Shown here in pieces: positions 12,213-39,958 of a stretch of 55,951 nucleotides of DNA. Origin of the DNA: a virus. Lineage: Duplodnaviria > Heunggongvirae > Uroviricota > Caudoviricetes. The stretch lies in the IMG/VR virus record IMGVR_UViG_2690316248_000012, positions 1 to 55,951 of that record. One strand, written 5' to 3'. Below the pieces are notes generated by a model that was not told where the DNA came from, did not search any database, and was given only the letters and a program-made list of their open reading frames with translations. Each line of letters begins with the position of its first letter. Positions within the stretch are counted from its first letter, which is position 1. A program made the translations under genes and the position numbers.

Positions 12213-13619
12213 TTAATACCCTACTGCAATATAAAAAACTGATTCACCAGCGTCCTGAGCACCTGTCCCCGGAATTCCAGACCAGGCTTTGTTAATGAAT
12301 GCAAAACTGGTATTACTCAGATCAGATGCTCTGTACATCGGGCTGAACATCCAGTAGTTGGCTCCATATGTTTGTCCGAAAACAATGCCATAGCACTGAT
12401 TTGTAAATGGCGTAGAAAATAATTTTCCACCATTACCAGCGATAGCACCGAATCGCATCTGGAATCCATTAGGGAAATTAACGCCACCCGATGCGGAAGA
12501 CCAGAAAGACATATCCGGTATCTGATTATCTCCTGTGCCCACATCCCTTTTCGCCGCTTCTCCTAAACCAAGGTATGCGAGAAGACCAGCAACATCCTTT
12601 CCACTCAAATTAGTCAGCGTATTGTCCAGCGGTTGTTTACCTGCTAGCGCATTAAGCATTGTCGTGGCAAAGTTCGGGTCATTCCCCAGCGCCGCCGCCA
12701 GTTCGTTCAATGTATCCAGTGCCGCAGGTGCAGACCCCACCATTGCTGCAATCGCCGATTTCACAAAAGCCGTAGTGGCAATCTGTGTATTGTTAACCGA
12801 CTGTGCGGCAGTAGGGGCTGTTGGCGTTCCGGTGAGTGCCGGACTCGACAGCGGCGCTTTCAGTGCCAGCGCATTGTTAATGGTGGTACTGAATTTCGGA
12901 TCATTGTTAATGGCTGCGGCTATTTCTTTTAGCGTGTCCAGCGTGGCTGGCGCACCATTAATAAGGGCCGTCAGTGCCGCCTGAACAAACGCGGTGGTCG
13001 CAAGTTGCGTGGTATTATTCCCCGCCGCTGGCGTCGGCGCTTTGGGGGTTCCGGTAAATATCGGGCTGGCTTTTGGCGCATACTGTGAATGTGGGTCCGC
13101 TGCGGCAAGGTGTTTTGCCATTTGGTCATCCACATACACCTTCAGCTCCAGTGCCTTATCATCCACATACTTGCGAGTTGCCAGTACTACAGCAGGGTCG
13201 ATTTTCAGGGTGATATTGTCCGTACTGCTGGTAATCAGCACCATGCGCACGGTCTGGGTACGCCCGCTGCCTTCAGCCAGTTGCGGCTTATAGCTTTCCG
13301 GGCAGTTTCCCACGGCAATCAATACCCCGGACTCATCAAACAGGCCCACTTCACGTATCCACCAACCACCCTCATTTTCAGGGATCACCTGTTCAGCAAT
13401 AATCTGGCTGCTGTTCTGCGGGTCGATATAGAGCATATTCAGCGCAGCCCGGCGTTTCTCATTTACCAATGCTGTCTGCTTGGCGTCCGGCGTTGGCAAT
13501 GTTCCGCCGCCATCGCCGACCGCCATATGGGTAATTTTTAAAGGCACACCGAGCGCGGCGGCGCTGGCGAGTTTCGCCGCGCCAATATCCGTCAGCAGGG
13601 TATAAAATTTTGTGCTCAT
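12213..13619 (-). CDS. H: tail fibre protein (gpH-like), C-terminus encoded within the invertible segment
   Basis: 468 aa; repeated TQLATTAFV / TPKAPT motifs; crossover sequence falls near codon 348 (YLGLGE). Confidence 0.8.
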   Translation of the reverse strand: MSTKFYTLLTDIGAAKLASAAALGVPLKITHMAVGDGGGTLPTPDAKQTALVNEKRRAALNMLYIDPQNSSQIIAEQVIPENEGGWWIREVGLFDESGVLIAVGNCPESYKPQLAEGSGRTQTVRMVLITSSTDNITLKIDPAVVLATRKYVDDKALELKVYVDDQMAKHLAAADPHSQYAPKASPIFTGTPKAPTPAAGNNTTQLATTAFVQAALTALINGAPATLDTLKEIAAAINNDPKFSTTINNALALKAPLSSPALTGTPTAPTAAQSVNNTQIATTAFVKSAIAAMVGSAPAALDTLNELAAALGNDPNFATTMLNALAGKQPLDNTLTNLSGKDVAGLLAYLGLGEAAKRDVGTGDNQIPDMSFWSSASGGVNFPNGFQMRFGAIAGNGGKLFSTPFTNQCYGIVFGQTYGANYWMFSPMYRASDLSNTSFAFINKAWSGIPGTGAQDAGESVFYIAVGY

Positions 13620-14221
13620 GGATTCACTCTCATTGTGTCAATAACATGGACCGCTCCGCCTTCATGCGCGGTGCCGCCGGAAATAATTGTTTCGTTGATA
13701 TACGGATAGATCGTGATTTCTTCGCCAAGATAGCTGGCAGCTCCCACCCAATGCGGGCCGCTGGTCTGCAGGTTGATGGACATGCCGATCATGTGACGGC
13801 TACATGGTTTGGCATCGCTTATCAGTCGCTCAAGTTCCAGATAGGTATCTTCAGTGATGCCCTGGTCCTGCACGCCGATATCCAGACGAAACGTGCCCGG
13901 AGTCTCTCCGGTCTGCCACCACTCAATAATGCGGATCAGAAAGCCGAACGGCTCCACCACCCGCCGCACGGCACTGGTGGTCCCTTTATGCTGATGAATA
14001 TAAAAAGCATCCTTCACCACCTGGCGCTTGACGCTTTCTGTCCAGCCCTCGTCCCAGCGATCCACAGAGAACGCCCAGGCGAGATAAGGCAGGAAACTGA
14101 CCGGACAGGTTGCCGGATTCCACAAGTCACGCAGCGGCACCTGCAGATCAGAAATCCCGCTACAGGTCTGCGCCAGTCGGCGCTCCAGTGAAGTTGAACC
14201 CAGTGGCAGCAGACTATTCAT
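13616..14221 (-). CDS. I: baseplate protein gpI-like
   Basis: 201 aa; position between J and H. Confidence 0.75.
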   Translation of the reverse strand: MNSLLPLGSTSLERRLAQTCSGISDLQVPLRDLWNPATCPVSFLPYLAWAFSVDRWDEGWTESVKRQVVKDAFYIHQHKGTTSAVRRVVEPFGFLIRIIEWWQTGETPGTFRLDIGVQDQGITEDTYLELERLISDAKPCSRHMIGMSINLQTSGPHWVGAASYLGEEITIYPYINETIISGGTAHEGGAVHVIDTMRVNP

Positions 14222-15122
14222 CCGTTCCTCCGTTGGTTACGCTCCACTGCGTACATGATGCGGCCTGTGTTTTGTTCAGGACCACATCAGCCAGCGGTGA
14301 AGCCAGCTCCACACGTTGAACCCCCTCAACATGCAGCGCGGCAAAAATGGCACTACGGCGAATATCCCGACCAAGCCGCGTCTGACTGGCGATGTACTTC
14401 TGCAGGCTGGCTTTTGCCGCTGCCATTACCGGCTCCGCTTCCGGTCCCGGATAGAGAAAAATGGTGGCTTCCACACGGTACGGGATGATTTCTGCGCTGC
14501 GAACCGTCAGACGGTCAGCCACCGGGCGGACGTTCTCACTGTTCAGGGCTTTCTCCACCACATCCAGCAAGTCTTTTTCTGCTGTTCCGTCGCCTTCACG
14601 GCTCAGGACAGTAAGCACCACCTCTGCAGGAGCCGGACTGGTTGCACTGGCATCCGCCACCCGACCGTCGGCGCTTCGGGCATGAAATTCATAAGCTGCA
14701 GTTGGTCCCGCAACTGAAAGCCCCTCAAAGGCTGCAGGCACACGCAGGCGTAACGCTTCATCGCTTTCCATCACTGCTGCAACGGGCGGCACAGCGTCAT
14801 TATCAGCAGGTGTCACCGTCAGGCGTTTCACGTTGTAGTTGGCAGCGAGCTGGTCAAGATCGCCGCCCATCGCGTAAGCCACCATCACCGCCTGCGCGGC
14901 TTCGTTAATGCGTTGGCGCAGAAGCAACTCACGGTAAGTATTCTCCTGCAACAATTTGGTGACGGGTTCAGATTCCAGTTCCAGCGTGCGGATCACTGCT
15001 TCCTGCTCATCTTTCGGATGAAGCGCCACAAATTCTGCCTTGCGTTCGGTAAGCAGCGTCTCAAAGTCCGGCACATCCACAATCTGCGGCGCAGGCAACT
15101 GCGAAAGGTCAATCACTGCCAT
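14214..15122 (-). CDS. J: baseplate protein gpJ-like
   Basis: ORF track gives 315 aa; start trimmed to the MAVIDLSQLP methionine (about 302 aa, P2 gpJ size). Confidence 0.75.
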   Translation of the reverse strand: MAVIDLSQLPAPQIVDVPDFETLLTERKAEFVALHPKDEQEAVIRTLELESEPVTKLLQENTYRELLLRQRINEAAQAVMVAYAMGGDLDQLAANYNVKRLTVTPADNDAVPPVAAVMESDEALRLRVPAAFEGLSVAGPTAAYEFHARSADGRVADASATSPAPAEVVLTVLSREGDGTAEKDLLDVVEKALNSENVRPVADRLTVRSAEIIPYRVEATIFLYPGPEAEPVMAAAKASLQKYIASQTRLGRDIRRSAIFAALHVEGVQRVELASPLADVVLNKTQAASCTQWSVTNGGTDE

Positions 15123-15468
15123 TCTCTGCTCCTGTCGATACGGAAAGGGACACAGGTACACCGTTATTCCGCCGCCCGGTCAGCTCCACCACCATAGAAC
15201 CGTCAAAGTTGCTGTTGATGGTGATGGAATCCAGCGTCAGCCGTGGCTCCCAGCGACTCAGCGCCACATACACTGCCGACATGACCTGCAGGCGTAACGC
15301 CGGATTTTGTGGCTGGTCTATCAGTGCCGACAGCAGGGAACCATATTCCCGGCGGGCAATGCGGCTACCCTGCGGTGTCAGCAGAATGTCCCGCACCGAC
15401 TGGCGCAGATGGTCAATATCAGTAATAGCTTTGCCGCTGGTATTGTTCATCCCGCTATAAAGCGTCAT
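15109..15468 (-). CDS. W: baseplate wedge protein gpW-like (GPW/gp25 family)
   Basis: 119 aa; position between V and J. Confidence 0.75.
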   Translation of the reverse strand: MTLYSGMNNTSGKAITDIDHLRQSVRDILLTPQGSRIARREYGSLLSALIDQPQNPALRLQVMSAVYVALSRWEPRLTLDSITINSNFDGSMVVELTGRRNNGVPVSLSVSTGAENGSD

Positions 15469-16043
15469 ACCGGGCCTCCGGTTGTGTCGCCGCCTTTCAG
15501 GACGCCAGTATGCTGATGTGCATCAACCACAATTCCGTTAGAACTCATTGCACCGCCGCCCTGGGTAACACCACCATTGATCACTACTTCGCTGTTAATA
15601 CGCGTGCGGTCAGCCTCCAGCACAAACTCTCTGGTTTTCAGGGTGATGTTGTCAGCAGCCTCAATGACCATGGATTTGATGCCCCTGACATACCAGCGCC
15701 CGGTGGCTGGTTCGTATTCAAACCAGCCACCGTCAGGATGTTCTGTCACGCAGGCTTCCGCCGACGTCGACGGTGGTGCGAACTGATTCGAATAGACAGC
15801 GGGCAGCGCAAAGGCGGTTTCCAGATTTCCTCCCAGACTCAGCAGCACCACCTGCTCACCTTCCGATGGTCGCCACCATGTGCGGGCATTACCCGCGCGC
15901 AGCGTCAGCCAGTTAATCCAGTTGGTTTCAAGGTCGCCCGTTTTCACCCGACAAAGCCAGTTTTCCTTGTCCACTTCAGTGACTACCCCTGTGCGGATCA
16001 GGTTGGTGATAAGGCGCATGATTTCTGTGAGTTGTGTATTCAT
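15465..16043 (-). CDS. V: baseplate spike/assembly protein gpV-like
   Basis: Start trimmed to MNTQLTEIMRL; alignable by eye to P2 gpV; paralogous to 51831-52427. Confidence 0.8.
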   Translation of the reverse strand: MNTQLTEIMRLITNLIRTGVVTEVDKENWLCRVKTGDLETNWINWLTLRAGNARTWWRPSEGEQVVLLSLGGNLETAFALPAVYSNQFAPPSTSAEACVTEHPDGGWFEYEPATGRWYVRGIKSMVIEAADNITLKTREFVLEADRTRINSEVVINGGVTQGGGAMSSNGIVVDAHQHTGVLKGGDTTGGPV

Positions 16044-16090
16044 AAGATTATTTTTCCATGCTTTACACAACCTCTTCAAACAGCTTATTT

Positions 16091-16108
16091 TGTATAAAAG
16101 AAGATACA
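16091..16108. promoter_or_regulatory. TGT-N12-ACA element upstream of V (candidate Ogr-dependent late promoter box)
   Basis: tgt ataaaagaagat aca read directly; about 50-65 bp upstream of the V start codon; spacing to ATG is shorter than expected. Confidence 0.3.
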
Positions 16109-16136
16109 ATTTTCTTTGAAAAGAAATAAACCCTCT

Positions 16137-16185
16137 GGTTAGAGGTTAGAGGTTAGAGGTTAGAGGTTAGAGGTTAGAGGTTAGT
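16137..16185. repeat. tandem heptanucleotide repeat (GGTTAGA) x6 plus one imperfect unit
   Basis: ggttaga repeated head-to-tail from 16137; lies between the Old-like gene stop and the V promoter region. Confidence 0.9.
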
Positions 16186-16218
16186 AGAATATCGCAGGGT
16201 TTCCCCTGCGACCATTTA

Positions 16219-18177
16219 TCAATTAAACTTTACAGGTTTATCACTTATAAAAAAATTTTCAATTTTGGCAATCCACTCTGGCCTTTTCCGCTCATTTCGC
16301 TCACAGATTGAAATATATTCCTTTGAAAAATCAAACTTAATTCCTTCACGGTCAAAAAAAGCATCAAGCGTTTTTTTGTTCTTGGGTGACAAATCCATCG
16401 CAGCAAACGATGAATGTCTTTCATCTATCATAACATTACTATTAGGCAGCAATGCCTGAAGCTCAGGAAAACGTGAAGAAAATGATGTTAAAGCCTCTAT
16501 AAACGATACAGGATTAAGACAATCCTCTATTTCTGTTGCAGGAGAAACTGGATTGGAAGAAATATCAACCAACTTCACTGAATCACCTACACTAACAATT
16601 CGCTTACAAACAACATGCGGCATAACTGGGGTATCATATGACACCAACTCTGAATCTGTATCGGTTAGTAAGAACACTTTTCCTTTGAGGTCTTTTTTGA
16701 ACTCTTCATAAGAAGCTTCTAAATGCTTAAATATTTTTTTAACTTCACTAGCTCCCCCTACAGGCACAATCCTTAGCCTTTTATTTTCTACCAAGTCCTT
16801 TAGATAATGCGAAAGATATATTTTTTCTGTAGTACCCTCACAAATCAACCAATTGTAAGGTTTCTCAGCCAAACAGCTAGATATTATGGATTGTATAAGG
16901 TCATTTACACTTTTTATTTTTATATCAAATGGCATACCCGGGGAAGAGGTTTTTACTTTCTTCCTGACTTCTTCTCTATAACTGGCAAGATCATATAATT
17001 CAAAATGATGAGTTGAATCTGTTTTAAGGATAGTTGTGGTACATCCATTTTCGACGGTTGGAAGATAGCCATACCAATGTGAAGTAAATATTAATTGTTC
17101 ACATATACCACTAATAGAATAGAGCTTTTCAAATTGTTCAAAACATGCAGACATATGAAGAGAACATTCTGGCTCATCAATTCCAATAATCAGATTATCG
17201 CCATTTTCTCTATGATTGGTAAGAAACCCATATGCAATATCCATTATTGCACGTTGCTTCTCCCCTGAACTTAGCGAGCTAATTTCAATCCAACCTGAAT
17301 TCTGCTTTTTATTTAATTTCCTAACTTTGAAGAATGCTTCGATAATCAAATTATAAACATCTTTCTTTTTTAATCGCGATTGTCTCTCGCCAGATGTTCT
17401 ATAACCATATTCTTCAAGCTCCTCTTCAACACCATCCAGAAATTTGGCAAGCCCTGTATTGATTTGACTTATGGTTCTATCAGATATTCTATCTTTAATT
17501 ATCTGCTCTAAAGACTCACCCATCAACTTTTGTACTTCACTTGTTTCTAGCTTCGTAAACGATTCAGAGTCTATATCCTTTGGAATATATATATATTCAT
17601 ACTTATGGCGGACATGATGTAATAAATACCCAAAGTGCTTACTAAGCAACTCGCTCGAAACTTTATTATCGGGATTATCAACCTCCAAAAGTCGACATAA
17701 ACTCTTCCCATTAAGAATCGAAATACTTACATCACCATCTTTCTCGACACCCAGAGGGATCAAAAAATAATCTTGGAGATTTAAATTTCTTTTTAATTTG
17801 TTAATATGTTCAAAAAACGTATTAATTATATTTCGTGTTGTTGGCGTCAATGTAACATCAGCATTACTATTGCTATATTCTAATACTAATTGCGTTAAGA
17901 TTTCAGCTTTAGCATGATGATCTTCATGTAATTCCTCTCGCTTTATAAGATATAAAGGAACAATATGTGGAGAAGGTCTGTCACTGGAGGTTCTTTTAAA
18001 TGAAGAATTAATATTCCATGGTTTGTTATTAATAAACGAATCTAAAGCCTCAAGAACAGAACTTTTGCCAATTCCATTGTTACCAACAATTCCACAAAAC
18101 TGACTTCCAGAAGATAACGGTATGTAATGATTTCCGTTGTATGTTTTAAAATACCTTAAAAAAATCCCTACTATCAT
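16219..18177 (-). CDS. old: OLD-family overcoming-lysogenization-defect nuclease (ABC-type ATPase + TOPRIM), P2 Old-like
   Basis: 652 aa; Walker A GNNGIGKSS, signature LSSGEKQ, Walker B IGIDEPECSLH, H-loop FTSHW, TOPRIM Glu in LICEGTTE and DxD in LLTDTDSE; same motif order as P2 Old; AT-rich gene. Confidence 0.8.
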   Translation of the reverse strand: MIVGIFLRYFKTYNGNHYIPLSSGSQFCGIVGNNGIGKSSVLEALDSFINNKPWNINSSFKRTSSDRPSPHIVPLYLIKREELHEDHHAKAEILTQLVLEYSNSNADVTLTPTTRNIINTFFEHINKLKRNLNLQDYFLIPLGVEKDGDVSISILNGKSLCRLLEVDNPDNKVSSELLSKHFGYLLHHVRHKYEYIYIPKDIDSESFTKLETSEVQKLMGESLEQIIKDRISDRTISQINTGLAKFLDGVEEELEEYGYRTSGERQSRLKKKDVYNLIIEAFFKVRKLNKKQNSGWIEISSLSSGEKQRAIMDIAYGFLTNHRENGDNLIIGIDEPECSLHMSACFEQFEKLYSISGICEQLIFTSHWYGYLPTVENGCTTTILKTDSTHHFELYDLASYREEVRKKVKTSSPGMPFDIKIKSVNDLIQSIISSCLAEKPYNWLICEGTTEKIYLSHYLKDLVENKRLRIVPVGGASEVKKIFKHLEASYEEFKKDLKGKVFLLTDTDSELVSYDTPVMPHVVCKRIVSVGDSVKLVDISSNPVSPATEIEDCLNPVSFIEALTSFSSRFPELQALLPNSNVMIDERHSSFAAMDLSPKNKKTLDAFFDREGIKFDFSKEYISICERNERKRPEWIAKIENFFISDKPVKFN

Positions 18178-18322
18178 AAAATTAGCTCCATTAGTGAGGT
18201 GAAGACATTAAAGTACAACAAGATTAATCTCAAAAAAAGAGCTTTATAGTATATTCAAGCAAGGTATCTTATGTAGAACGATAAAGTCTCCCTCCACTAA
18301 TTCTCTTAACCCACTATTTACT

Positions 18323-18760
18323 TTAGCGTTTTAAGTAAACACCCAAGTTCAAGTTACTAATATCCTTAGTAAATCCTAAAAGCCTTCTCTCAGGGTACTG
18401 TACTTTTAAACCTCTTCGACTAACACGGTCACGCAGTCCATAGTGGTGTACACAGGCGATGCGCTGGACTTTTCCATCAAAATACACGCAGGCATAATCC
18501 GCTGTGGCGGCAGTTTTCAGGTATTTATTAGTGCGCAATTTGGCGAACATCTGGCGTTTGATGCGCCCCTTCTTACTGCGGGCTGCTACCCGGCGCGGCT
18601 CAAAGCCGCTGCCATCAGGGTTAAGCTGCAGCCTGATATTCTTCTGCTGATTGCGGCGCAACTCCTGCGCCAGTTCCCGCATCATACGCTGGCGTGTGGC
18701 AGGCTCCAGATTCGCCAGCAAGGCCGCCAGCCACTCATCCACCTTCTGCAGTTCAGCCAC
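18323..18760 (-). CDS. S: tail completion protein gpS-like
   Basis: 145 aa; position after R and before V as in P2. Confidence 0.65.
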   Translation of the reverse strand: MAELQKVDEWLAALLANLEPATRQRMMRELAQELRRNQQKNIRLQLNPDGSGFEPRRVAARSKKGRIKRQMFAKLRTNKYLKTAATADYACVYFDGKVQRIACVHHYGLRDRVSRRGLKVQYPERRLLGFTKDISNLNLGVYLKR

Positions 18761-19184
18761 GTTTCACCGTCCACATTTCTTCAGGTTCATCAGGTTCCGC
18801 TATAGCTTCAACGCTCGACACACTGCCGTCAGTGCTGACCAGCACACGCTCCGTCAGTTGCAGGTTAAGGCTGATATCACAGACATCGTTGCGCAGAATA
18901 TCCACCTCAAAGGTGAATAACTTTTCCCGTAACGCCGGATTATTGATGGCATCGGGCTGGTTATCCCGCAGCCACAGCAAAACCGGGGCCATCAGCAGAT
19001 TCTGGTCGCCGCTGAAATCCTCAATCACCACGTTCAGGGTGTAGCGGTACTCCCATGACATGGAGCTGGCCCCCGTGGCAACCAGCGAACCGTTATCCAC
19101 AAACAGATGCAGTTTGTCCGGGTTATTGCGGACATAAGGCACCGCCTTATTGAGGGCGTGGCGCAGGGATTGTGGTTTGTTCAC
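18753..19184 (-). CDS. R: tail completion protein gpR-like
   Basis: KPQSLRHALNKAV aligns with the P2 gpR N-terminus; start set to the GTG before it (ORF track start 19205). Confidence 0.65.
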   Translation of the reverse strand: MNKPQSLRHALNKAVPYVRNNPDKLHLFVDNGSLVATGASSMSWEYRYTLNVVIEDFSGDQNLLMAPVLLWLRDNQPDAINNPALREKLFTFEVDILRNDVCDISLNLQLTERVLVSTDGSVSSVEAIAEPDEPEEMWTVKRG

Positions 19185-19437
19185 TGTTTCGCTCCTGACA
19201 CGCAATAATCATGTCCACTTTGTCTGCACAGACCGCCCAGGCGGCCTCCGTTTCATCCAACAACGCGTTCAGATCACCGTTAATGCGCGGCGCTGCCTGA
19301 TCCAGCCGACACGGCGTCACTCGCGGACAACCACTGACGGTAAGCTGCACCTCCGGTGAGCGTGGGGCGTTCCCGCAGCCGGATAATGTCAGCAGGCAAA
19401 GGAGTATCAGCCCAGCGGCGTAAATCCTCGTTCTCAC
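19147..19437 (-). CDS. lysC: o-spanin (LysC/Rz1-like outer-membrane lipoprotein)
   Basis: 96 aa; signal peptide with lipobox LTLSGC; overlaps the lysB 3' end in another frame. Confidence 0.75.
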   Translation of the reverse strand: MRTRIYAAGLILLCLLTLSGCGNAPRSPEVQLTVSGCPRVTPCRLDQAAPRINGDLNALLDETEAAWAVCADKVDMIIACQERNSEQTTIPAPRPQ

Positions 19438-19708
19438 GTTTCAGTTCCTCAATCCGGTGTTGTCGTTGTCTCAGCAGTGCGCTGGTCTGTTCTGCGTCGG
19501 CATAGAGCCGCGCCTGCTCCCGGTTGTTGGTTTCAGCCAGAATGGACAGGCTGATAAGCTGGCTGTTGCTCTTTGCCAGTGCCTGGCTTTTGCTCTGCAG
19601 CTCGTCTGCCTGCGTGCTAATGGTCTGGCTGGCATCAGCCAGCCGCCACGTCTGCCAGCCCAGCGCCGCCAGTAATAACGCCAGCACAACCAGCAGCAAC
19701 CGGTTCAT
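19280..19708 (-). CDS. lysB: i-spanin (LysB/Rz-like)
   Basis: 142 aa; N-terminal transmembrane anchor then coiled coil; o-spanin gene overlaps in another frame. Confidence 0.75.
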   Translation of the reverse strand: MNRLLLVVLALLLAALGWQTWRLADASQTISTQADELQSKSQALAKSNSQLISLSILAETNNREQARLYADAEQTSALLRQRQHRIEELKRENEDLRRWADTPLPADIIRLRERPTLTGGAAYRQWLSASDAVSAGSGSAAH

Positions 19709-20001
19709 GCTGCTACCTGTTGCGCCATCTGATTACGGGTGATCCAGAAGGCAATAACGGTCAGTAGATAAAACACCAGGGTAATAGCCCACCCCGTCCA
19801 GGCGAGACTTACAACAATCAGCAATCGCATCACCCAACTGGTAAATACGTTTTCTTTTCGGGTAATTGTCTTCAGCAAAGATGCCCTTAACTCCTGCCAG
19901 AGCGGTCCATTCTTAATTAACGCAGCCAGTGCTACCGGAATTACCGCCCATGTCAGCAAACAGGCTACCCAAACGCCGGACGCTGCCAGTTGATCAGACA
20001 T
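19705..20001 (-). CDS. LysA-like/holin-like small membrane protein
   Basis: 98 aa with two to three hydrophobic helices; immediately upstream of the spanins; shorter than P2 LysA. Confidence 0.5.
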   Translation of the reverse strand: MSDQLAASGVWVACLLTWAVIPVALAALIKNGPLWQELRASLLKTITRKENVFTSWVMRLLIVVSLAWTGWAITLVFYLLTVIAFWITRNQMAQQVAA

Positions 20002-20351
20002 GAGATAAATGAAGGGGGATCCGTGAGATAAATAACGAATTGGAGTGGGTTAACATGGGTTCTGGTGAACAGAACTGAAATTCTTTTCCGCTATACGATA
20101 GATAAGTCGGGCATTGAAATCATCCTTCCTGGCAACTTAGAATCGAGTTTGCTGAAACATGACCCGCAACAAAAAGGATGATTCCAATGACTACTCAAAA
20201 CAATAAGCATGATAGCCTGGATTACTCAGAAAAGCCCAAAAGCAAGCACATCGTGACGTTCGAGCGCGATTCCGGTAGAAAAGGAGAATCGTCTTCCTCT
20301 GCCAATAAAACCACTATGCCGGCAGCCCCTGCCCCAGGGAAAAAATAAACA

Positions 20352-20986
20352 TCATTCATCGTTCGTTGCACGAACGCGCCTGATCTCCACTCTGGCAATC
20401 TGATCTGCTGGAATATAGGTTGCCAGAGCTCCCCAATACTTATCAACCACGCCTTTATACTCTTCCCATTCGTTACTGCCTGAAGGGCTGCTGTGCGTGA
20501 CGTAAAGAACCATATCGCCTTTATTCCCCAGGGTAAACGGACCGTTAGGCCACTCTTCAAAATTCCCTGGCAGCCGTGACATCATACCGGAACCATCGCG
20601 AAGAATCACTCTGACCTCGGTAACGCTGAAGCCTGTTTGATCAAACATTGCCTGCCATGCTGAGCTGGTATCGTCAGACCATGAAATATCATTATTCCAC
20701 AGTAATCTGTACATCCATTTGCGACCGTACCTGCGCCACCACGCACCGCATGTAACGGCACACAGAAGTGCTGGTGGTGTTGCCAGCCAGGCATTCAGAC
20801 CTGCCCACATAACAGCCTGGTAAGCCATCATTGCCGTCAGGCCAAAAATCAGCGAAGAAAAAGTCACCTCAATGGGCTTGTGGTGATCCTTCAGTCCCAC
20901 ATTCGCAATAAAATACCCAATATAGCCACTGGTCAGGGTCACCAGTGTTGCCCATGGCAGATTTAACAACGAAACGTCAAACATAT
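20352..20986 (-). CDS. membrane protein of unknown function (N-terminal transmembrane helices, C-terminal soluble domain)
   Basis: Start trimmed to MFDVSLL with GGAG 7 nt upstream (ORF track start 21062); no recognisable catalytic motif. Confidence 0.5.
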
Positions 20987-23737: not shown

Positions 23738-24010
23738 TCAGTGCTTCCGGCTGACGGTGATGTGCAGGCCGCCTTCTGCAGTGGTTTCCATCCGGTACGG
23801 CACCTCATGCGCTGCCGTGTGGGTTAGTGTGTTCACCAGTACCTGCAGGGCAGCCGCCTTTCCGTTGGTCGCCACAATGGCTTGAGCGGTCATGCTGATT
23901 AGCGCCGTCAGGACGTGCTTCACATCGGTGAGGTCGCGGCATTCACACTCGTTGACATAGTGTTCAACAAGGGTTCGGGTGCGCTGTCGTGCTTCCTGTG
24001 GGGTAATCAT
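23738..24010 (-). CDS. hypothetical protein
   Basis: 90 aa; start overlaps upstream gene stop. Confidence 0.4.
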   Translation of the reverse strand: MITPQEARQRTRTLVEHYVNECECRDLTDVKHVLTALISMTAQAIVATNGKAAALQVLVNTLTHTAAHEVPYRMETTAEGGLHITVSRKH

Positions 24011-24201
24011 TGCGAGTCCTCCCTGTCAGGGCGGGAGAATTCCATGACGGGCACGTCTGCCGAAAAATGCTGGCTGCAGTACGGGCAGACCAGGGTGACG
24101 CGTACCGCAGGGATGTGGTATTTACCGGACATCACGGCGATGGCGCTGTGAAAACGCAGGGCTGTTATATCCCTCTCGCACTGAATACATTTAAATATCA
24201 T
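24007..24201 (-). CDS. small zinc-ribbon-like protein
   Basis: 64 aa with CxxC ... CPYC cysteine pairs. Confidence 0.4.
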   Translation of the reverse strand: MIFKCIQCERDITALRFHSAIAVMSGKYHIPAVRVTLVCPYCSQHFSADVPVMEFSRPDREDSQ

Positions 24202-29981: not shown

Positions 29982-30338
29982 ATGAGCAAAGATATAGGAG
30001 AGCGCGTTATTTCTGTGAGGAAGAAAGCAGGGTTGAACCAGAGAGAATTTGCAGCTCGTTTAGGTATTTCTAATGGTGGTATCAGTCAGATTGAAAATGG
30101 AAAGGCGATGCCTGGAGGGGAGTTTCTGTTAAAGATGCATCAAGAGTTTAATGTTGATGTAAATTGGTTGCTCACTGGAATGAGCACAGATGGTATGACT
30201 AGAAACCAGAATCAAATTTCCCCAGAAAAACAAAAACTAATAGATACTTTTGACGACATGACACCAGACCAACAACGCTCATTTCTTGAGATTGGGCGAT
30301 TCTATACTCAGCCAAAACCAGGAAAAATCGCAGGCTGA
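29982..30338 (+). CDS. XRE-family HTH repressor (phage c repressor-like)
   Basis: 118 aa; N-terminal HTH QREFAARLGISNGGISQIENG; divergent from ner. Confidence 0.75.
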   Translation: MSKDIGERVISVRKKAGLNQREFAARLGISNGGISQIENGKAMPGGEFLLKMHQEFNVDVNWLLTGMSTDGMTRNQNQISPEKQKLIDTFDDMTPDQQRSFLEIGRFYTQPKPGKIAG

Positions 30339-30423: not shown

Positions 30424-30452
30424 ACCGGAAAGCATTGTGCTTTCCGGTTTTG
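30424..30452. terminator. hairpin plus T-tract between convergent c and dam genes
   Basis: accggaaagc attgtgc tttccggt followed by tttgttt. Confidence 0.5.
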
Positions 30453-30454
30453 TT

Positions 30455-31219
30455 TCAGAAGTTGCAGATTAGCAGTTCACGGCGCGGCGTGGGTTTACCC
30501 GCCAGACTGTAGTTGATATTCACTGTCTGTATGTTCAGTCCAGTGAACACCTCGCGCATCTGCGGGATGTCGTTCACCGAAATTATCATTTTTCCTCTGA
30601 TGCACCGGGCCAGCTCTGCCAGCCGCGAGTAGTTCCCTTCAGGAAAATCCACACCATAGCCTTCCGTACCCAGGTACGGTGGGTCGCAGTAGAACAGCGT
30701 GTGCGGACGATCATAACGCTCAATGCACTGTTGCCAGTCCATGTGTTCTATGACTGTTCTGGAAAGCCGCAGGTGTGCCGCTGACAGTTCTTCTTCAATA
30801 CGTAGCAGGTTGAAGCGTGGCGGGGATGTGGTGGAGGTACCGAAGCTGTGCTCTGCCACCTTGCCGCCAAACGCCTGCTTCTGAAGGTAGTAGAACCGTG
30901 CCGCACGCTGGATATCCGTCAGTGTTTCTTCCGGGGTGATCTGCAGCCATTTGTAGATCTGACGGCTGACCAGCGCCCATTTGAACTGGCGGACAAATTC
31001 TTCCAGGTGATGCTTTACCACCCGGTACAGATTCACCAGTTCACCGTTGATATCATTGATGACTTCGATCTTGCCGGGTGTCTTAAGAAAATAGAGCGCT
31101 GCTGCCCCACAAAACGGCTCCACATAACATTCATGCGCCGGAAACAGCGGCAGAATGTGTTTTGCAAGGCGGCGTTTGCCACCAATCCATGGAACGATGG
31201 GTAATGTCTGCATTTTCAT
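30455..31219 (-). CDS. dam: DNA adenine methyltransferase (Dam-like, D12 class N6-adenine MTase)
   Basis: 254 aa; FCGAAA AdoMet motif near N-terminus and DPPY catalytic motif. Confidence 0.85.
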   Translation of the reverse strand: MKMQTLPIVPWIGGKRRLAKHILPLFPAHECYVEPFCGAAALYFLKTPGKIEVINDINGELVNLYRVVKHHLEEFVRQFKWALVSRQIYKWLQITPEETLTDIQRAARFYYLQKQAFGGKVAEHSFGTSTTSPPRFNLLRIEEELSAAHLRLSRTVIEHMDWQQCIERYDRPHTLFYCDPPYLGTEGYGVDFPEGNYSRLAELARCIRGKMIISVNDIPQMREVFTGLNIQTVNINYSLAGKPTPRRELLICNF

Positions 31220-31410
31220 AATCTGTAAGCCTTTTACAATTATTAAAAATATGGCAGGCTAGTCTGGTCTCGCGAGACTGACTGAACCTCGGTCGGCTCA
31301 CAGCCACTTCTGTGGGACGATGGCCAGCCCGGTGGGTCCGAAGCACCGGGCTGGTCGTTCTTTCATGATGCGGCAGGGATAGTGGGATTTCTGTTAATGT
31401 GGTTTAGGGA

Positions 31411-31626
31411 TTATCCGGGGCGATTTTCTGACCTTATCCGGTCCAGGGCATAAGTAATACCTTCTGCAAAAACAGAAGTATCAAACTGCTTTTGTATTCC
31501 CTGAAAATGAAAAGCGGCACGACAGACACTCAGTTCTCCGCGATGTAACCGGATAATATCTTCCAGAACATTGTTCACTGCTTCAGCACGGCGCTGATGT
31601 TCTGTTAACGTTAATCGGGGATTCAT
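31411..31626 (-). CDS. hypothetical small protein
   Basis: 71 aa; between P-loop gene and dam. Confidence 0.35.
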   Translation of the reverse strand: MNPRLTLTEHQRRAEAVNNVLEDIIRLHRGELSVCRAAFHFQGIQKQFDTSVFAEGITYALDRIRSENRPG

Positions 31627-31679
31627 GATGCACTCCTTAAATGATGATTTTTATGTACTCACCGGCAAAATATTCTGCG

Positions 31680-32423
31680 CTACGTGTTTGATGAACGTAA
31701 GTGAGGTTTATCTGCTGTCTGCATAATCCCGATAGCCAGTGCGAGGGGCAGTAATTCCGGGGAAACTCTTTCAAACAGCGACTCCCATTCTCCTCTCGCC
31801 ATCACTCTGTCCAGCCCGCCCCCCAGTTGCATTTCAGCAATCTTCCTGATTTCCCGGAACAACGCCTCTTTGATCTCTTCATGCTCAGCTTTATTTTCCG
31901 GTGTCAGAATGTATTCGTCGAAGAACCGGGGAGGCTGGTTAACGGGGATTGTGTTCACCGGGATGTGTTCCTGCTTCCCGTACTTCGGGGCCGAAAAACA
32001 TTCTGTTGGCTGACCGGTGAGTTTACGTAACTCCTTCATGAGCAGTTCCTGATCGTAAACTGTCATCAGTGCCGCAATGGTGGCATGCAGTGCATCGGGC
32101 AGTATCCAGGGTTGCCGGCCCGCGGGGCATATAACATCCAGCAGCTCATTCGTCCGACAGATACGCTCCTCGCCGTATGACAACAGGCCCTGTCCCGTGT
32201 ATTCCTCCAGCCTGATCACTGTGCCAGCCCGTGGCTTCTGCCAGGTCGTCAGATCATCGCCACTCATACGGCGCTCATTCTCCACGTCAGCAGCATCGAC
32301 AATGACGCTGTTTCCGAGTTCCTGTTTCACCATCTCTTCTATCCGCGCCAGTACGTAACTTTTACCGCTGCCCACAGGACCGGACACAGTGACAGTGATG
32401 ACCGGATTCAGTGTGTGCGTCAT
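31680..32423 (-). CDS. P-loop NTPase of unknown function
   Basis: 247 aa; Walker A GPVGSGKS near N-terminus; no further family recognised by eye. Confidence 0.5.
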   Translation of the reverse strand: MTHTLNPVITVTVSGPVGSGKSYVLARIEEMVKQELGNSVIVDAADVENERRMSGDDLTTWQKPRAGTVIRLEEYTGQGLLSYGEERICRTNELLDVICPAGRQPWILPDALHATIAALMTVYDQELLMKELRKLTGQPTECFSAPKYGKQEHIPVNTIPVNQPPRFFDEYILTPENKAEHEEIKEALFREIRKIAEMQLGGGLDRVMARGEWESLFERVSPELLPLALAIGIMQTADKPHLRSSNT

Positions 32424-32555
32424 ATCGTATTCTCCTCTGTGAATAATTCATCGTTTATTCTGCGCATCCCGTATCCCCGGCTCTCTTAACGCGCTTTAAA
32501 ATCCTTCGCGCCCCGTATTTGTGATGCTGTCTCCACTACACAAGGAGACATCTTT

Positions 32556-32906
32556 ATGAAAAAACTCACCTCCCTTATCGCAGACGTACAAAAAACCCGC
32601 CTGCGTGGCTGGCTTGTTGCCGCCGTACTGCTGCTCCTCATCATCGCGCTGGTCTCACCCCAGCAGTTGCCGGTGGTGGTGTACAAGCTCTCTCTCATCT
32701 CCCTCGCCGCCGTGCTCGGCTACTGGCTGGACCGCTCACTCTTCCCGAAGGCCCGTCCGGGGCAGTACCTGAAGCATGACGAGCGCCTCATGGCTGAGGG
32801 GCGCTGGCCCGTACAGACCGGCCTTCACCTGGTGTTTTCTGCTGCGTTAATCCGCCGTGCACTGATTGTTGCAGCTGTCTGTCTGGCTGTTGCGATGGGG
32901 CTTTAA
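32556..32906 (+). CDS. holin-like membrane protein
   Basis: 116 aa, three hydrophobic helices; first gene of the late operon, upstream of endolysin. Confidence 0.5.
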   Translation: MKKLTSLIADVQKTRLRGWLVAAVLLLLIIALVSPQQLPVVVYKLSLISLAAVLGYWLDRSLFPKARPGQYLKHDERLMAEGRWPVQTGLHLVFSAALIRRALIVAAVCLAVAMGL

Positions 32907-39744: not shown

Positions 39745-39958
39745 GTTTTCTCTCTTCAGGCGGGTGATTTATCATTGCCAGCGAATGAGGGGCTGTATTA
39801 CCTTTATAAAGGCTTTACAGCCTCTGTTTTATAACCGCCTCCGGTTCACCGCATTGCTTTCCCTGTCCTTCTCCCCTGATGTTTTCTAAAGCAGATTAAA
39901 ATCGCCGGGCCTGCATTTCTCACAAACTGTCTCCGACAACATAACGCGGGACAGCAAA

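Follow-up and report, generated by a model that had tools for sequence, protein, structure and literature searches.

A putative Mom-like adenine methyltransferase and its conserved RNA leader in the variable cargo slot of an Escherichia coli BcepMu-like prophage

Introduction

The DNA-modification gene mom of bacteriophage Mu is credited with protecting progeny phage DNA against restriction, and its start site is masked by RNA structure. Here, we analyze a 55,951-nucleotide stretch of viral DNA (IMG/VR record IMGVR_UViG_2690316248_000012, positions 1 to 55,951; hereafter, the window), which is an Escherichia coli BcepMu-like (Bcepmuvirus) transposable prophage. Our subject is a block of three minus-strand open reading frames (ORFs) whose exact coordinates had been given in a first-pass annotation: a methylase gene (30455-31219, 254 amino acids), a small ORF called orf71 (31411-31626, 71 amino acids), and a gene for a P-loop protein (31680-32423, 247 amino acids). 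The block is flanked by a helix-turn-helix (HTH) repressor gene (29982-30338) and a holin gene (32556-32906), both on the plus strand.

Two published studies concern the closest described systems. Drozdz et al. (PMC3299994) reported that methylases replace mom in Mu-like phages, and that phage B3 has a Com homologue together with an adenine methylase, ORF48, in the place of Mom; the activity of ORF48 was untested. Forde et al. 2015 (PMC4659465) described M.EcoMIV as a D12-class orphan methyltransferase on prophage Phi2 of EC958, a strain of sequence type 131 (ST131). Its transcript was significantly below that of dam in mid-log culture in LB medium, as measured by reverse transcription PCR (RT-PCR) on uninduced cells, no methylation motif in the single-molecule real-time (SMRT) sequencing data could be assigned to it, and no specificity was known for any homologue above 65% identity. 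The leader RNA, the neighboring genes, and the link to B3 that are treated below were not described in that work.

The explanation that we consider reasonably probable is that the block is an optional cargo arm of the prophage, with a mom-like methylase that is silent in the lysogen, a switch in the leader of its mRNA, and two independent accessory genes.

Results

The methylase

The product of 30455-31219 (minus strand) is an orphan alpha-class (D12/Dam-family) N6-adenine DNA methyltransferase, as assigned from Pfam, TIGR00571, accession identity, and orthology to B3 ORF48. It matches PF02086 with an E value of 6e-29 (102 bits against a cutoff of 22) and scores barely above the cutoff of the Dam-family model TIGR00571 (116.6 versus 114.85 bits). 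The N6-adenine methyltransferase motifs recognized in the first-pass annotation occur in the order typical of the D12 class, with EPFCGAAA (the AdoMet motif of the FxGxG type, residues 34-41) followed by the target-recognition region and then by a C-terminal DPPY (residues 179-182), and the two motifs are invariant across the alignment of the clade. Accession WP_000783854.1 is common to E. coli B771 and to prophage Phi2 of EC958, and the methylase is therefore M.EcoMIV. An identity with M.EcoGI or M.EcoGII, which are non-specific beta-class enzymes (349 amino acids, PMC5778455), was rejected. No endonuclease or nuclease gene that could provide a cognate effector was detected with Pfam or PADLOC among the neighboring genes, in agreement with the earlier annotation, and PADLOC returned only methyltransferase models for the block.

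The methylase shares about 25-30% sequence identity with EcoDam, T4 Dam, and DpnM, with PDB matches at E values of 1e-12 to 1e-17, and obtains 67 bits against a cutoff of 441 with NF008152, the equivalog model for GATC-specific Dam. The recognition hairpin of DpnM and EcoDam, NGLxRxN...FNVPxGRY, aligns with FGGKVAEHS...FGTSTTSPPRF in the methylase. Differing residues align with N120, L122, R124, N126, and P134, which we take to be the GATC-contacting residues of EcoDam. Judging from these comparisons, GATC specificity of the methylase should not be assumed.

With ORF48 of phage B3, the methylase shares 64% identity. That gene overlaps the end of B3 ORF47, which is a true Com (PF10122, E 4e-22). 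Orthologues with 58-66% identity occupy late-gene contexts, namely, 3′ of holin-endolysin-Rz in phiE125, 3′ of lysis or lysozyme genes in KS9 and Lodos, 3′ of tail gene D in VP882, and, for some, the right end of Mu-like genomes. The literature on the VP882 and phiE125 methylases yielded nothing usable. On many IMG/VR contigs (L064, L072, L075-L078, L088, L090, L094, L096, and others), the methylase is the final gene, with 0-30 nt to the contig end, a placement consistent with the position of mom at the right end of transposable phage genomes. By sequence comparison, the methylase is placed in the B3 ORF48, or mom-replacement, clade and probably stands in for Mu mom; homology and context point to a late-expressed, Mom-like modification of self DNA. 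The role in anti-restriction or self-marking that had been proposed for it at the outset gains support from the orphan character of the N6-methyladenine (m6A) enzyme, its identity to B3 ORF48, the orthologues in late operons, and the low transcript level in the lysogen (PMC4659465).

The methylase could, alternatively, be mainly an epigenetic regulator of lysis-lysogeny, transposition, or host genes and not an anti-restriction enzyme. Host Dam tunes both Mu mom and IS10/Tn10. The methylase gene is an orphan that adjoins the immunity region, its elaborate translational control (see below) suggests that dosage matters, and regulatory roles are known for Dam-family enzymes (PMC4659465). We consider this alternative unlikely, however, because the orthologues in phages of unrelated types are distant from the immunity region, their genes closing the late operons, because the B3 gene is paired with that of Com, whose dedicated task is to regulate modification by Mom, and because transcript levels in the lysogen are low (PMC4659465).

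The leader RNA

The methylase gene is preceded by a conserved structured RNA leader of about 147 nt (31214-31360, minus strand), which was delineated from the fold z-score, a covariance model, covariation, and single-sequence folds. The 191-nt spacer 5′ of the gene has a fold z-score of −4.6 relative to shuffled sequence. On the minus strand, the leader comprises a hairpin P1 (31358-31317), an anti-sequestor hairpin P2 (31314-31299), a closing or sequestor helix (31303-31295 with 31231-31223), and, enclosed by the latter, P3 (31289-31256) and P4 (31249-31232). The closing helix covers the Shine-Dalgarno GG and stops 3 nt before the AUG at 31219.

The leader is kept wherever the methylase occurs, including loci that lack orf71. 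With a profile, it was also recovered 5′ of the methylase genes of VP882 and MuM16-1, and its architecture can be seen by eye in phiE125, KS9, Lodos, and Acba_3. Single-sequence folds of 13 diverse leaders gave z-scores of about −2 to −7 and a common fold, consisting of the strong hairpin P1 and a multibranch domain with a long-range closing helix, in which P3 carries a palindromic apex. The closing helix pairs a CUGUGAGCC-like with a GGCUUACAG-like segment, and the latter ends at the AUG or a few nucleotides before it. This helix is present in the minimum-energy folds of 10 of the 13 leaders; in the remaining three, P2 is formed by CUGUG and the upstream CACAG.

A covariance model built from eight enterobacterial leader sequences gave 43 plus-strand matches among 92 sources. 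All 43 lie directly 5′ of the methylase gene, with the annotated start codon as their endpoint in nearly all cases. In the resulting alignment, 87% of cells are paired, compared with 70.6% in shuffles, and in 41 of the 44 pairs, both partners have changed. The covariation score is 0.402 versus 0.157 for shuffled alignments (0 of 500 shuffles scored as high), and slid controls gave values of 0.04-0.08. The alignment was fitted to the structure of the model, which biases these values toward that structure, inflates the pair counts, and weighs against our interpretation; the single-sequence folds are independent of the model and mitigate this.

P2 can form in nearly all distinct leader sequences, and the strand that it has in common with the closing helix covaries with both of its partners. 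This three-way covariation can be followed in triplets of upstream, shared, and downstream segments such as CACAG/CUGUGAG/CUUACAG, CGCAG/CUGCGAG/UUUGCAG, CACUG/CAGUGAA/UUUCAC, and UGCAG/CUGCAAG/CUUGCA, as well as UACAGUG/CACUGUAAACC/GGUUUACAUG. It implies that two mutually exclusive conformations have been selected, a sequestor of the ribosome-binding site (RBS) and an anti-sequestor, and the leader appears to gate translation of the methylase as a switch. The comparative analysis indicates that, as in com-mom, the start site of a modification gene is masked by mRNA structure.

In phage B3, the leader ends at the start codon of com (24 bits, E 1e-4; z-score −4.15). The leader and a methyltransferase of the B3 ORF48 type occur together across BcepMu-like, Mu-like, lambdoid Burkholderia, hapunavirus, and Pseudomonas/Acinetobacter phages. 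Searches of Rfam 15 gave no match at E ≤ 1 in the region of the window or over the leaders of seven other phage loci. The leader has not previously been catalogued and is new relative to the published work on M.EcoMIV. We tentatively propose, while putting the odds somewhat below even, that it represents an undescribed class of phage riboregulator with three hairpins and a built-in sequestor/anti-sequestor, which in B3 would be the top-level gate of a Mom-like module and which would respond to a signal. This signal may be a protein, a ligand such as S-adenosylmethionine (SAM), or transcription kinetics, and the response to it may restrict synthesis of a potentially toxic methylase to a brief late period.

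Several features of P1 and P3 would also fit an element that acts in RNA processing or stability, or one that attenuates transcription, for example, an RNase III site or a 3′ stabilizer of the upstream message, in place of a translational switch. P1 is a long, perfect, GC-rich hairpin that directly follows the upstream gene in several phages, and P3, with its palindromic apex, is, like P1, typical of sites for RNase III or for protein binding. Such a function is nevertheless quite improbable, since P1 is not followed by a U-tract, the leader consistently ends at the start codon in nearly all covariance-model matches, and a covarying closing helix over the RBS, one strand of which also covaries with P2, is hard to explain otherwise.

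Three further observations on the leader were made. The apex of P3 (31270-31279 in the window; also in contigs L044, L046, L049, and L132) is a perfect DNA palindrome whose sequence varies between phages, for example, TCTCGCGAGA, CCTCGCGAGG, CCTACGTAGG, and CACGTG; it may serve as a kissing loop that pairs with itself, or proteins may bind to it. Contig L005 (9351-9623 and 10004-10927) contains two copies of the leader, the first followed by only the initial 30 or so methylase codons and, after an insert of about 540 bp, a second, divergent leader with a full methylase gene. This duplication looks like the scar of an allelic replacement by recombination inside the leader. Finally, a remnant of the leader (50.9 bits) is found at L025:8897-9034, in a prophage from which the methylase gene has been lost.

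Transcription signals

The 132 bp that separate the divergent P-loop and holin genes (32424-32555) form a putative control region, with blocks that have been preserved among prophages sharing no more than about 50-70% identity. In the window, this region holds a near-perfect dyad, TTAACGCGCTTTAA, at 32486-32499, which reads TTAAAGCGCTTTAA in L025. On either side, at a distance of exactly 30 nt, the dyad is flanked by a weak −10-like hexamer (CAGAAT, 32462-32457, minus strand; GATGCT, 32523-32528, plus strand), and it would be centered at −42.5 for both candidate promoters. Mor- and C-activated promoters of Mu have a similar dyad geometry, and the prophage has a Mor-family gene. For the minus-strand operon, no promoter of the sigma-70 type was detected. 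The shared dyad suggests that the block may be co-activated with the lysis and late genes. Use of the 16-bp dyad as a motif to define a regulon was rejected, as allowing up to three mismatches gave too few, and ambiguous, additional sites.

The window holds two copies, and no more, of a related motif, TTAAAATC-N(9-13)-ATTT (32496-32520 and 39896-39918, both plus strand), where 0.02 copies would be expected by chance. The copies lie upstream of plus-strand late operons, those of the holin and of the head protease/scaffold region, and are probably late promoters. No shared late-promoter motif was detected on the minus strand in front of any of the three genes of the block. The 5′ leader of the holin gene (32527-32549, plus strand) contains an inverted repeat, GTCTCC-N10-GGAGAC, the 3′ arm of which is the Shine-Dalgarno sequence (AAGGAGAC). 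It is invariant across the same diverged prophages (about 50-70% identity) and could form a second RBS-masking hairpin, on the lysis operon.

At the other end of the block, the hairpin terminator that had been noted between the convergent repressor and methylase genes (30424-30448, plus strand) is real, with an 11-bp stem and a 3-nt loop. A T-run is present on the plus strand only, so that the hairpin reads as the terminator of the repressor gene and is not clearly bidirectional.

The P-loop protein

The 247-residue and 71-residue proteins, initially described as unrecognizable, indeed belong to no curated family, but both fall into PHROG families of unknown function. The P-loop protein (31680-32423, minus strand) belongs to phrog_3787 (E 1e-162). 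Searches of Pfam gave a single, sub-threshold match to AAA_30, and PADLOC assigned no defense family to it, to orf71, or to the alternative cargo genes of the slot. An exhaustive phmmer search of 1.84 billion representative proteins returned 53 matches, from which only residues 1-76 emerge as widely conserved, including the Walker A motif, E50, W61, and E74. This N-terminal mini-domain of about 75 residues (32196-32423) carries the Walker A sequence GPVGSGKS (residues 15-22, 32358-32381), which conforms to GxxxxGK[ST] after a β strand and in which G20, K21, and S22 are invariant or nearly so. The C-terminal tails are shuffled, mostly helical modules that form a mosaic among relatives. Among the phmmer matches, P0043 (2018 residues) and P0049 (1150 residues) are long repetitive proteins that match the middle of the P-loop protein in multiple stretches; these are probably compositional or repeat artifacts, and one resembles a eukaryotic protein with immunoglobulin (Ig) repeats.

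The mini-domain also occurs as a stand-alone protein of 70-90 residues in unrelated accessory regions of phages or prophages, without a methylase: in the early region of a Pseudomonas prophage by ERF and YqaJ genes, between HNH and small terminase genes, and on a 73-kb metagenomic contig. The context was phage or prophage in every locus inspected. Some members of the family have a degenerate Walker A motif (GAESSGKN), indicating that ATPase activity may not be universal. A scan of genome contigs was dominated by the generic Walker A pattern and gave two relatives among 600 candidate stretches.

A profile of the mini-domain matches the strand-Walker A-helix-strand unit of ATP-binding cassette (ABC) ATPases (best whole-sequence E 1.8e-5) and of designed phosphate-loop proteins, and searches of PDB sequences with the P-loop protein gave similarity at the level of the Walker A motif only. 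AlphaFold2 predicted the full-length protein with a predicted local distance difference test (pLDDT) score of 47 and the N-terminal domain with a score of 85; fold searches gave no match. An assignment as nucleotide kinase gained no support, as matches to guanylate and cytidylate kinases were at chance level and confined to the Walker A motif or a short C-terminal stretch. With low confidence, we suggest that the mini-domain may bind a nucleotide or phosphate ligand while the shuffled tails pick a partner, in phage-host or phage-phage conflict.

Gene content of the slot

The region of the block is 100% identical to E. coli B771 (2.7-kb block) and 97% identical to phage PhiKM, which is classified as a Bcepmuvirus, and the block is found in 635 of 5426 complete E. 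coli genomes. The early arm of the prophage runs leftward with genes for Ner-like, IclR-type HTH, DUF3102, DDE transposase, ExeA-like, Gam, and other proteins, and Mor as the last; the late arm runs rightward through holin, SLT endolysin, Rz-like, and terminase genes to the head and tail genes. The first-pass annotation had taken the block to mark a discontinuity in the architecture. The same layout recurs, however, in PhiKM, in prophage Phi2 of EC958, and in some 20 IMG/VR contigs; early and late arms that diverge are the normal arrangement of the BcepMu-like group, and there is no discontinuity. What is unusual here is that the slot between repressor and lysis cassette is hypervariable.

In tblastn comparisons across related viral contigs, the first gene to diverge from the holin gene is invariably the P-loop gene. 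In L008, L011-L015, and L025, it is present without the methylase gene and orf71, and their place is taken by other genes on the repressor strand in which Pfam and PADLOC detect only domains of unknown function. L024, L026, and L027 have the methylase gene with its leader but lack orf71, and the BcepMu-like Klebsiella phage KP12 has methylase and leader with neither the P-loop gene nor orf71. Co-occurrence of the trio is confined to one lineage of closely related E. coli prophages (at least 95% DNA identity). As the genes separate in diverged relatives, the three do not constitute one system; by these sequence comparisons, the P-loop gene and orf71 are to be seen as independent accessory genes that share a hypervariable slot. 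The block, as first posed, is largely ordinary: an optional cargo arm of the prophage and not a three-component system.

Orf71 (31411-31626, minus strand) is a small ORF of unknown function that belongs to phrog_4490 (E 2e-52) and occurs only in BcepMu-like prophages of the E. coli type; it gave no match in Pfam, NCBIfam, or PADLOC. Its frame is intact in six alleles, and substitutions are not biased to third codon positions, so that these alleles lend its status as a coding gene weak support. Between the P-loop gene and orf71, most E. coli relatives have about 325 bp of additional sequence that encodes a hypothetical protein of 134 residues on the opposite strand (WP_000972294.1 in EC958; also L035:27975-28379 and L005:8745-9122), without a match in Pfam or PADLOC. 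In the window, a scar of this gene remains (31627-31679, plus strand), as seen from alignments in two pieces, the EC958 annotation, and sequence comparison: the deletion is clean, with the junction near 31675/31676, and the first 16 or so codons of the ORF are left.

The idea, raised at the outset, that the three genes form one methylation-linked defense or addiction system, in which the methylase marks self and the P-loop protein and orf71 act as effector or toxin against unmarked DNA or upon loss of the prophage, draws on their common orientation, close spacing, and co-inheritance in hundreds of E. coli genomes. In addition, the best PADLOC match of the methylase is a Type II methyltransferase model, and the P-loop protein has a sub-threshold likeness to the defense ATPases SngB and HerA (E 0.01-0.04). 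The co-inheritance lies, however, within the single prophage lineage mentioned above, and in diverged relatives, the genes dissociate. Neither a restriction partner nor a toxin was found, the P-loop protein having no detectable nuclease or toxin domain, and its stand-alone mini-domain homologues reside in unrelated phage regions without methylases. A methylase that is essentially silent in the lysogen (PMC4659465) is also a poor fit to constitutive self-marking. Of the two findings named beforehand as telling against such a system, one was not obtained, as the P-loop protein did not resolve as a nucleotide kinase, whereas the other was, with the trio co-occurring only in the one E. coli lineage. 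We regard a joint system as very unlikely.

That the P-loop protein or orf71 is an analogue of Com that binds the leader RNA in trans and opens the start site is highly improbable: both genes lie just upstream in the same operon in the E. coli prophages, the leader needs some trigger, and the window has no Com homologue, but KP12, VP882, phiE125, KS9, Lodos, MuM16-1, and many viral contigs keep leader and methylase without either protein, and neither has a recognizable RNA-binding domain.

Elsewhere in the window, a 64-residue C4 zinc-ribbon ORF (CxxC...CPxC) is located at 24007-24201 (minus strand) in the early operon, directly downstream of gam. It was considered as the only C4 candidate for Com in the window and rejected, as it matches neither PF10122 nor, by BLASTP, B3 Com. 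The G+C content is markedly low between 16001 and 18000 (0.33-0.35, with about 0.55 around this region). In B771, P2-like tail genes (sheath, tube, tape measure, and gpD) directly adjoin the BcepMu-like prophage; the corresponding flank of the window would be at about 12800-20700. Judging from the B771 sequence, the transposable phage may have inserted into or beside another prophage.

Discussion

The combined observations offer an explanation in which the methylase would stay silent in the lysogen and be produced in lytic growth, when it would methylate progeny phage DNA before packaging, so that this DNA escapes restriction in the next host, the role that Mom has in Mu. Expression appears to be controlled by two gates. 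At the first, which we infer from sequence, the operon would start at an activator-dependent promoter that shares the conserved dyad with the divergent lysis promoter. At the second, which the comparative analysis shows, the leader can take up two mutually exclusive folds. In the closed fold, a long-range helix of CUGUGAGCC with GGCUUACAG buries the ribosome-binding site before the AUG; in the open fold, the same CUGUG segment pairs with the upstream CACAG as P2, which would free the start site. Candidate triggers of the switch are co-transcriptional folding kinetics, a protein, or a ligand.

A number of points weigh against this explanation. The activity and specificity of the methylase are deduced from homology and context, as they are for its close relatives, and since the GATC-reading residues of EcoDam and DpnM do not appear to be kept, the label "Dam" would apply at the level of the family only. 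Expression in the lytic cycle is deduced from gene context and one published RT-PCR experiment on uninduced cells, and transcription start and activator dependence are predictions from the DNA sequence. The −10 assignments are weak, and one of them conflicts with the conserved inverted repeat in the holin leader. The analogy to mom/com is incomplete in that the window yielded no Com homologue (no match to PF10122 and nothing significant in tblastn with B3 Com). Last, the P-loop gene is always the first in the operon of E. coli-type prophages, where it may be linked to the methylase in function.

The block is present in roughly one of every eight complete E. coli genomes, among them those of the ST131 pandemic lineage. 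Two points raise the interest of the locus, the placement of the methylase in its clade and a conserved RNA switch that is absent from Rfam. The first, the B3 ORF48 or mom-replacement placement, leads to a testable role, the guarding of progeny phage DNA against restriction; if true, methylation limited to induction would explain why methylome surveys of lysogens came up empty. More general in scope is the leader, a small switch with strong covariation that precedes the genes of a single methyltransferase clade in many types of phage and offers a simple system in which to study how phages time a DNA-modifying enzyme without Com. The Walker A mini-domain family with its shuffled tails represents further conserved and unexplained accessory content of phages.

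Comparison with known systems

At the protein level, the methylase does not differ from M.EcoMIV (the REBASE name) of EC958 Phi2, to which it is identical and which occupies the same position in the same type of prophage. EcoDam, T4 Dam, and DpnM belong to the same Pfam family and have the same motif order, but identity is about 25-30%, and the residues of the GATC hairpin are replaced. Hia5, Hin1523, and Nma1821 (PMC3299994) are likewise alpha-class m6A enzymes that take the place of mom in Mu-like prophages; they are silent during lysogeny and have been proposed to be under Com-like control. The Hia5 group is non-specific, a relaxed specificity that is not to be carried over to the present clade; the two clades differ, B3 ORF48 being outside the 1000 sequences closest to Hia5 according to the statement in PMC3299994.

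The conserved unit of the P-loop protein resembles the nucleotide-binding domains (NBDs) of ABC proteins and minimal designed P-loop proteins in its strand-Walker A-helix-strand arrangement. Compared with ABC NBDs, however, it comprises only about 75 residues and lacks the Q-loop, the signature motif, and the H-loop.

The likeness to Mu mom lies in a DNA-modification gene of a transposable phage that seems to be silent during lysogeny and has its start site hidden in RNA structure (PMC3299994). In contrast to Mom, which is an acetamido-modifying enzyme, the protein described here is a methyltransferase, and its gene is situated between repressor and lysis cassette on the opposite strand, whereas com-mom is at the right end. 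The ORF47-ORF48 pair of B3 combines a 64% identical methylase with the same structured leader. Unlike in B3 and Mu, no Com homologue was found in the window, and the leader, which in B3 lies 5′ of com, here lies 5′ of the methylase gene itself. The translation-inhibition stem of Mu mom, the leader of the MS2 maturation gene, and the expression platforms of riboswitches likewise oppose an RBS sequestor to an upstream anti-sequestor that shares one strand with it. The present leader has no sequence or Rfam relationship to these and is set apart from them by its association with one methyltransferase clade across at least five phage types.

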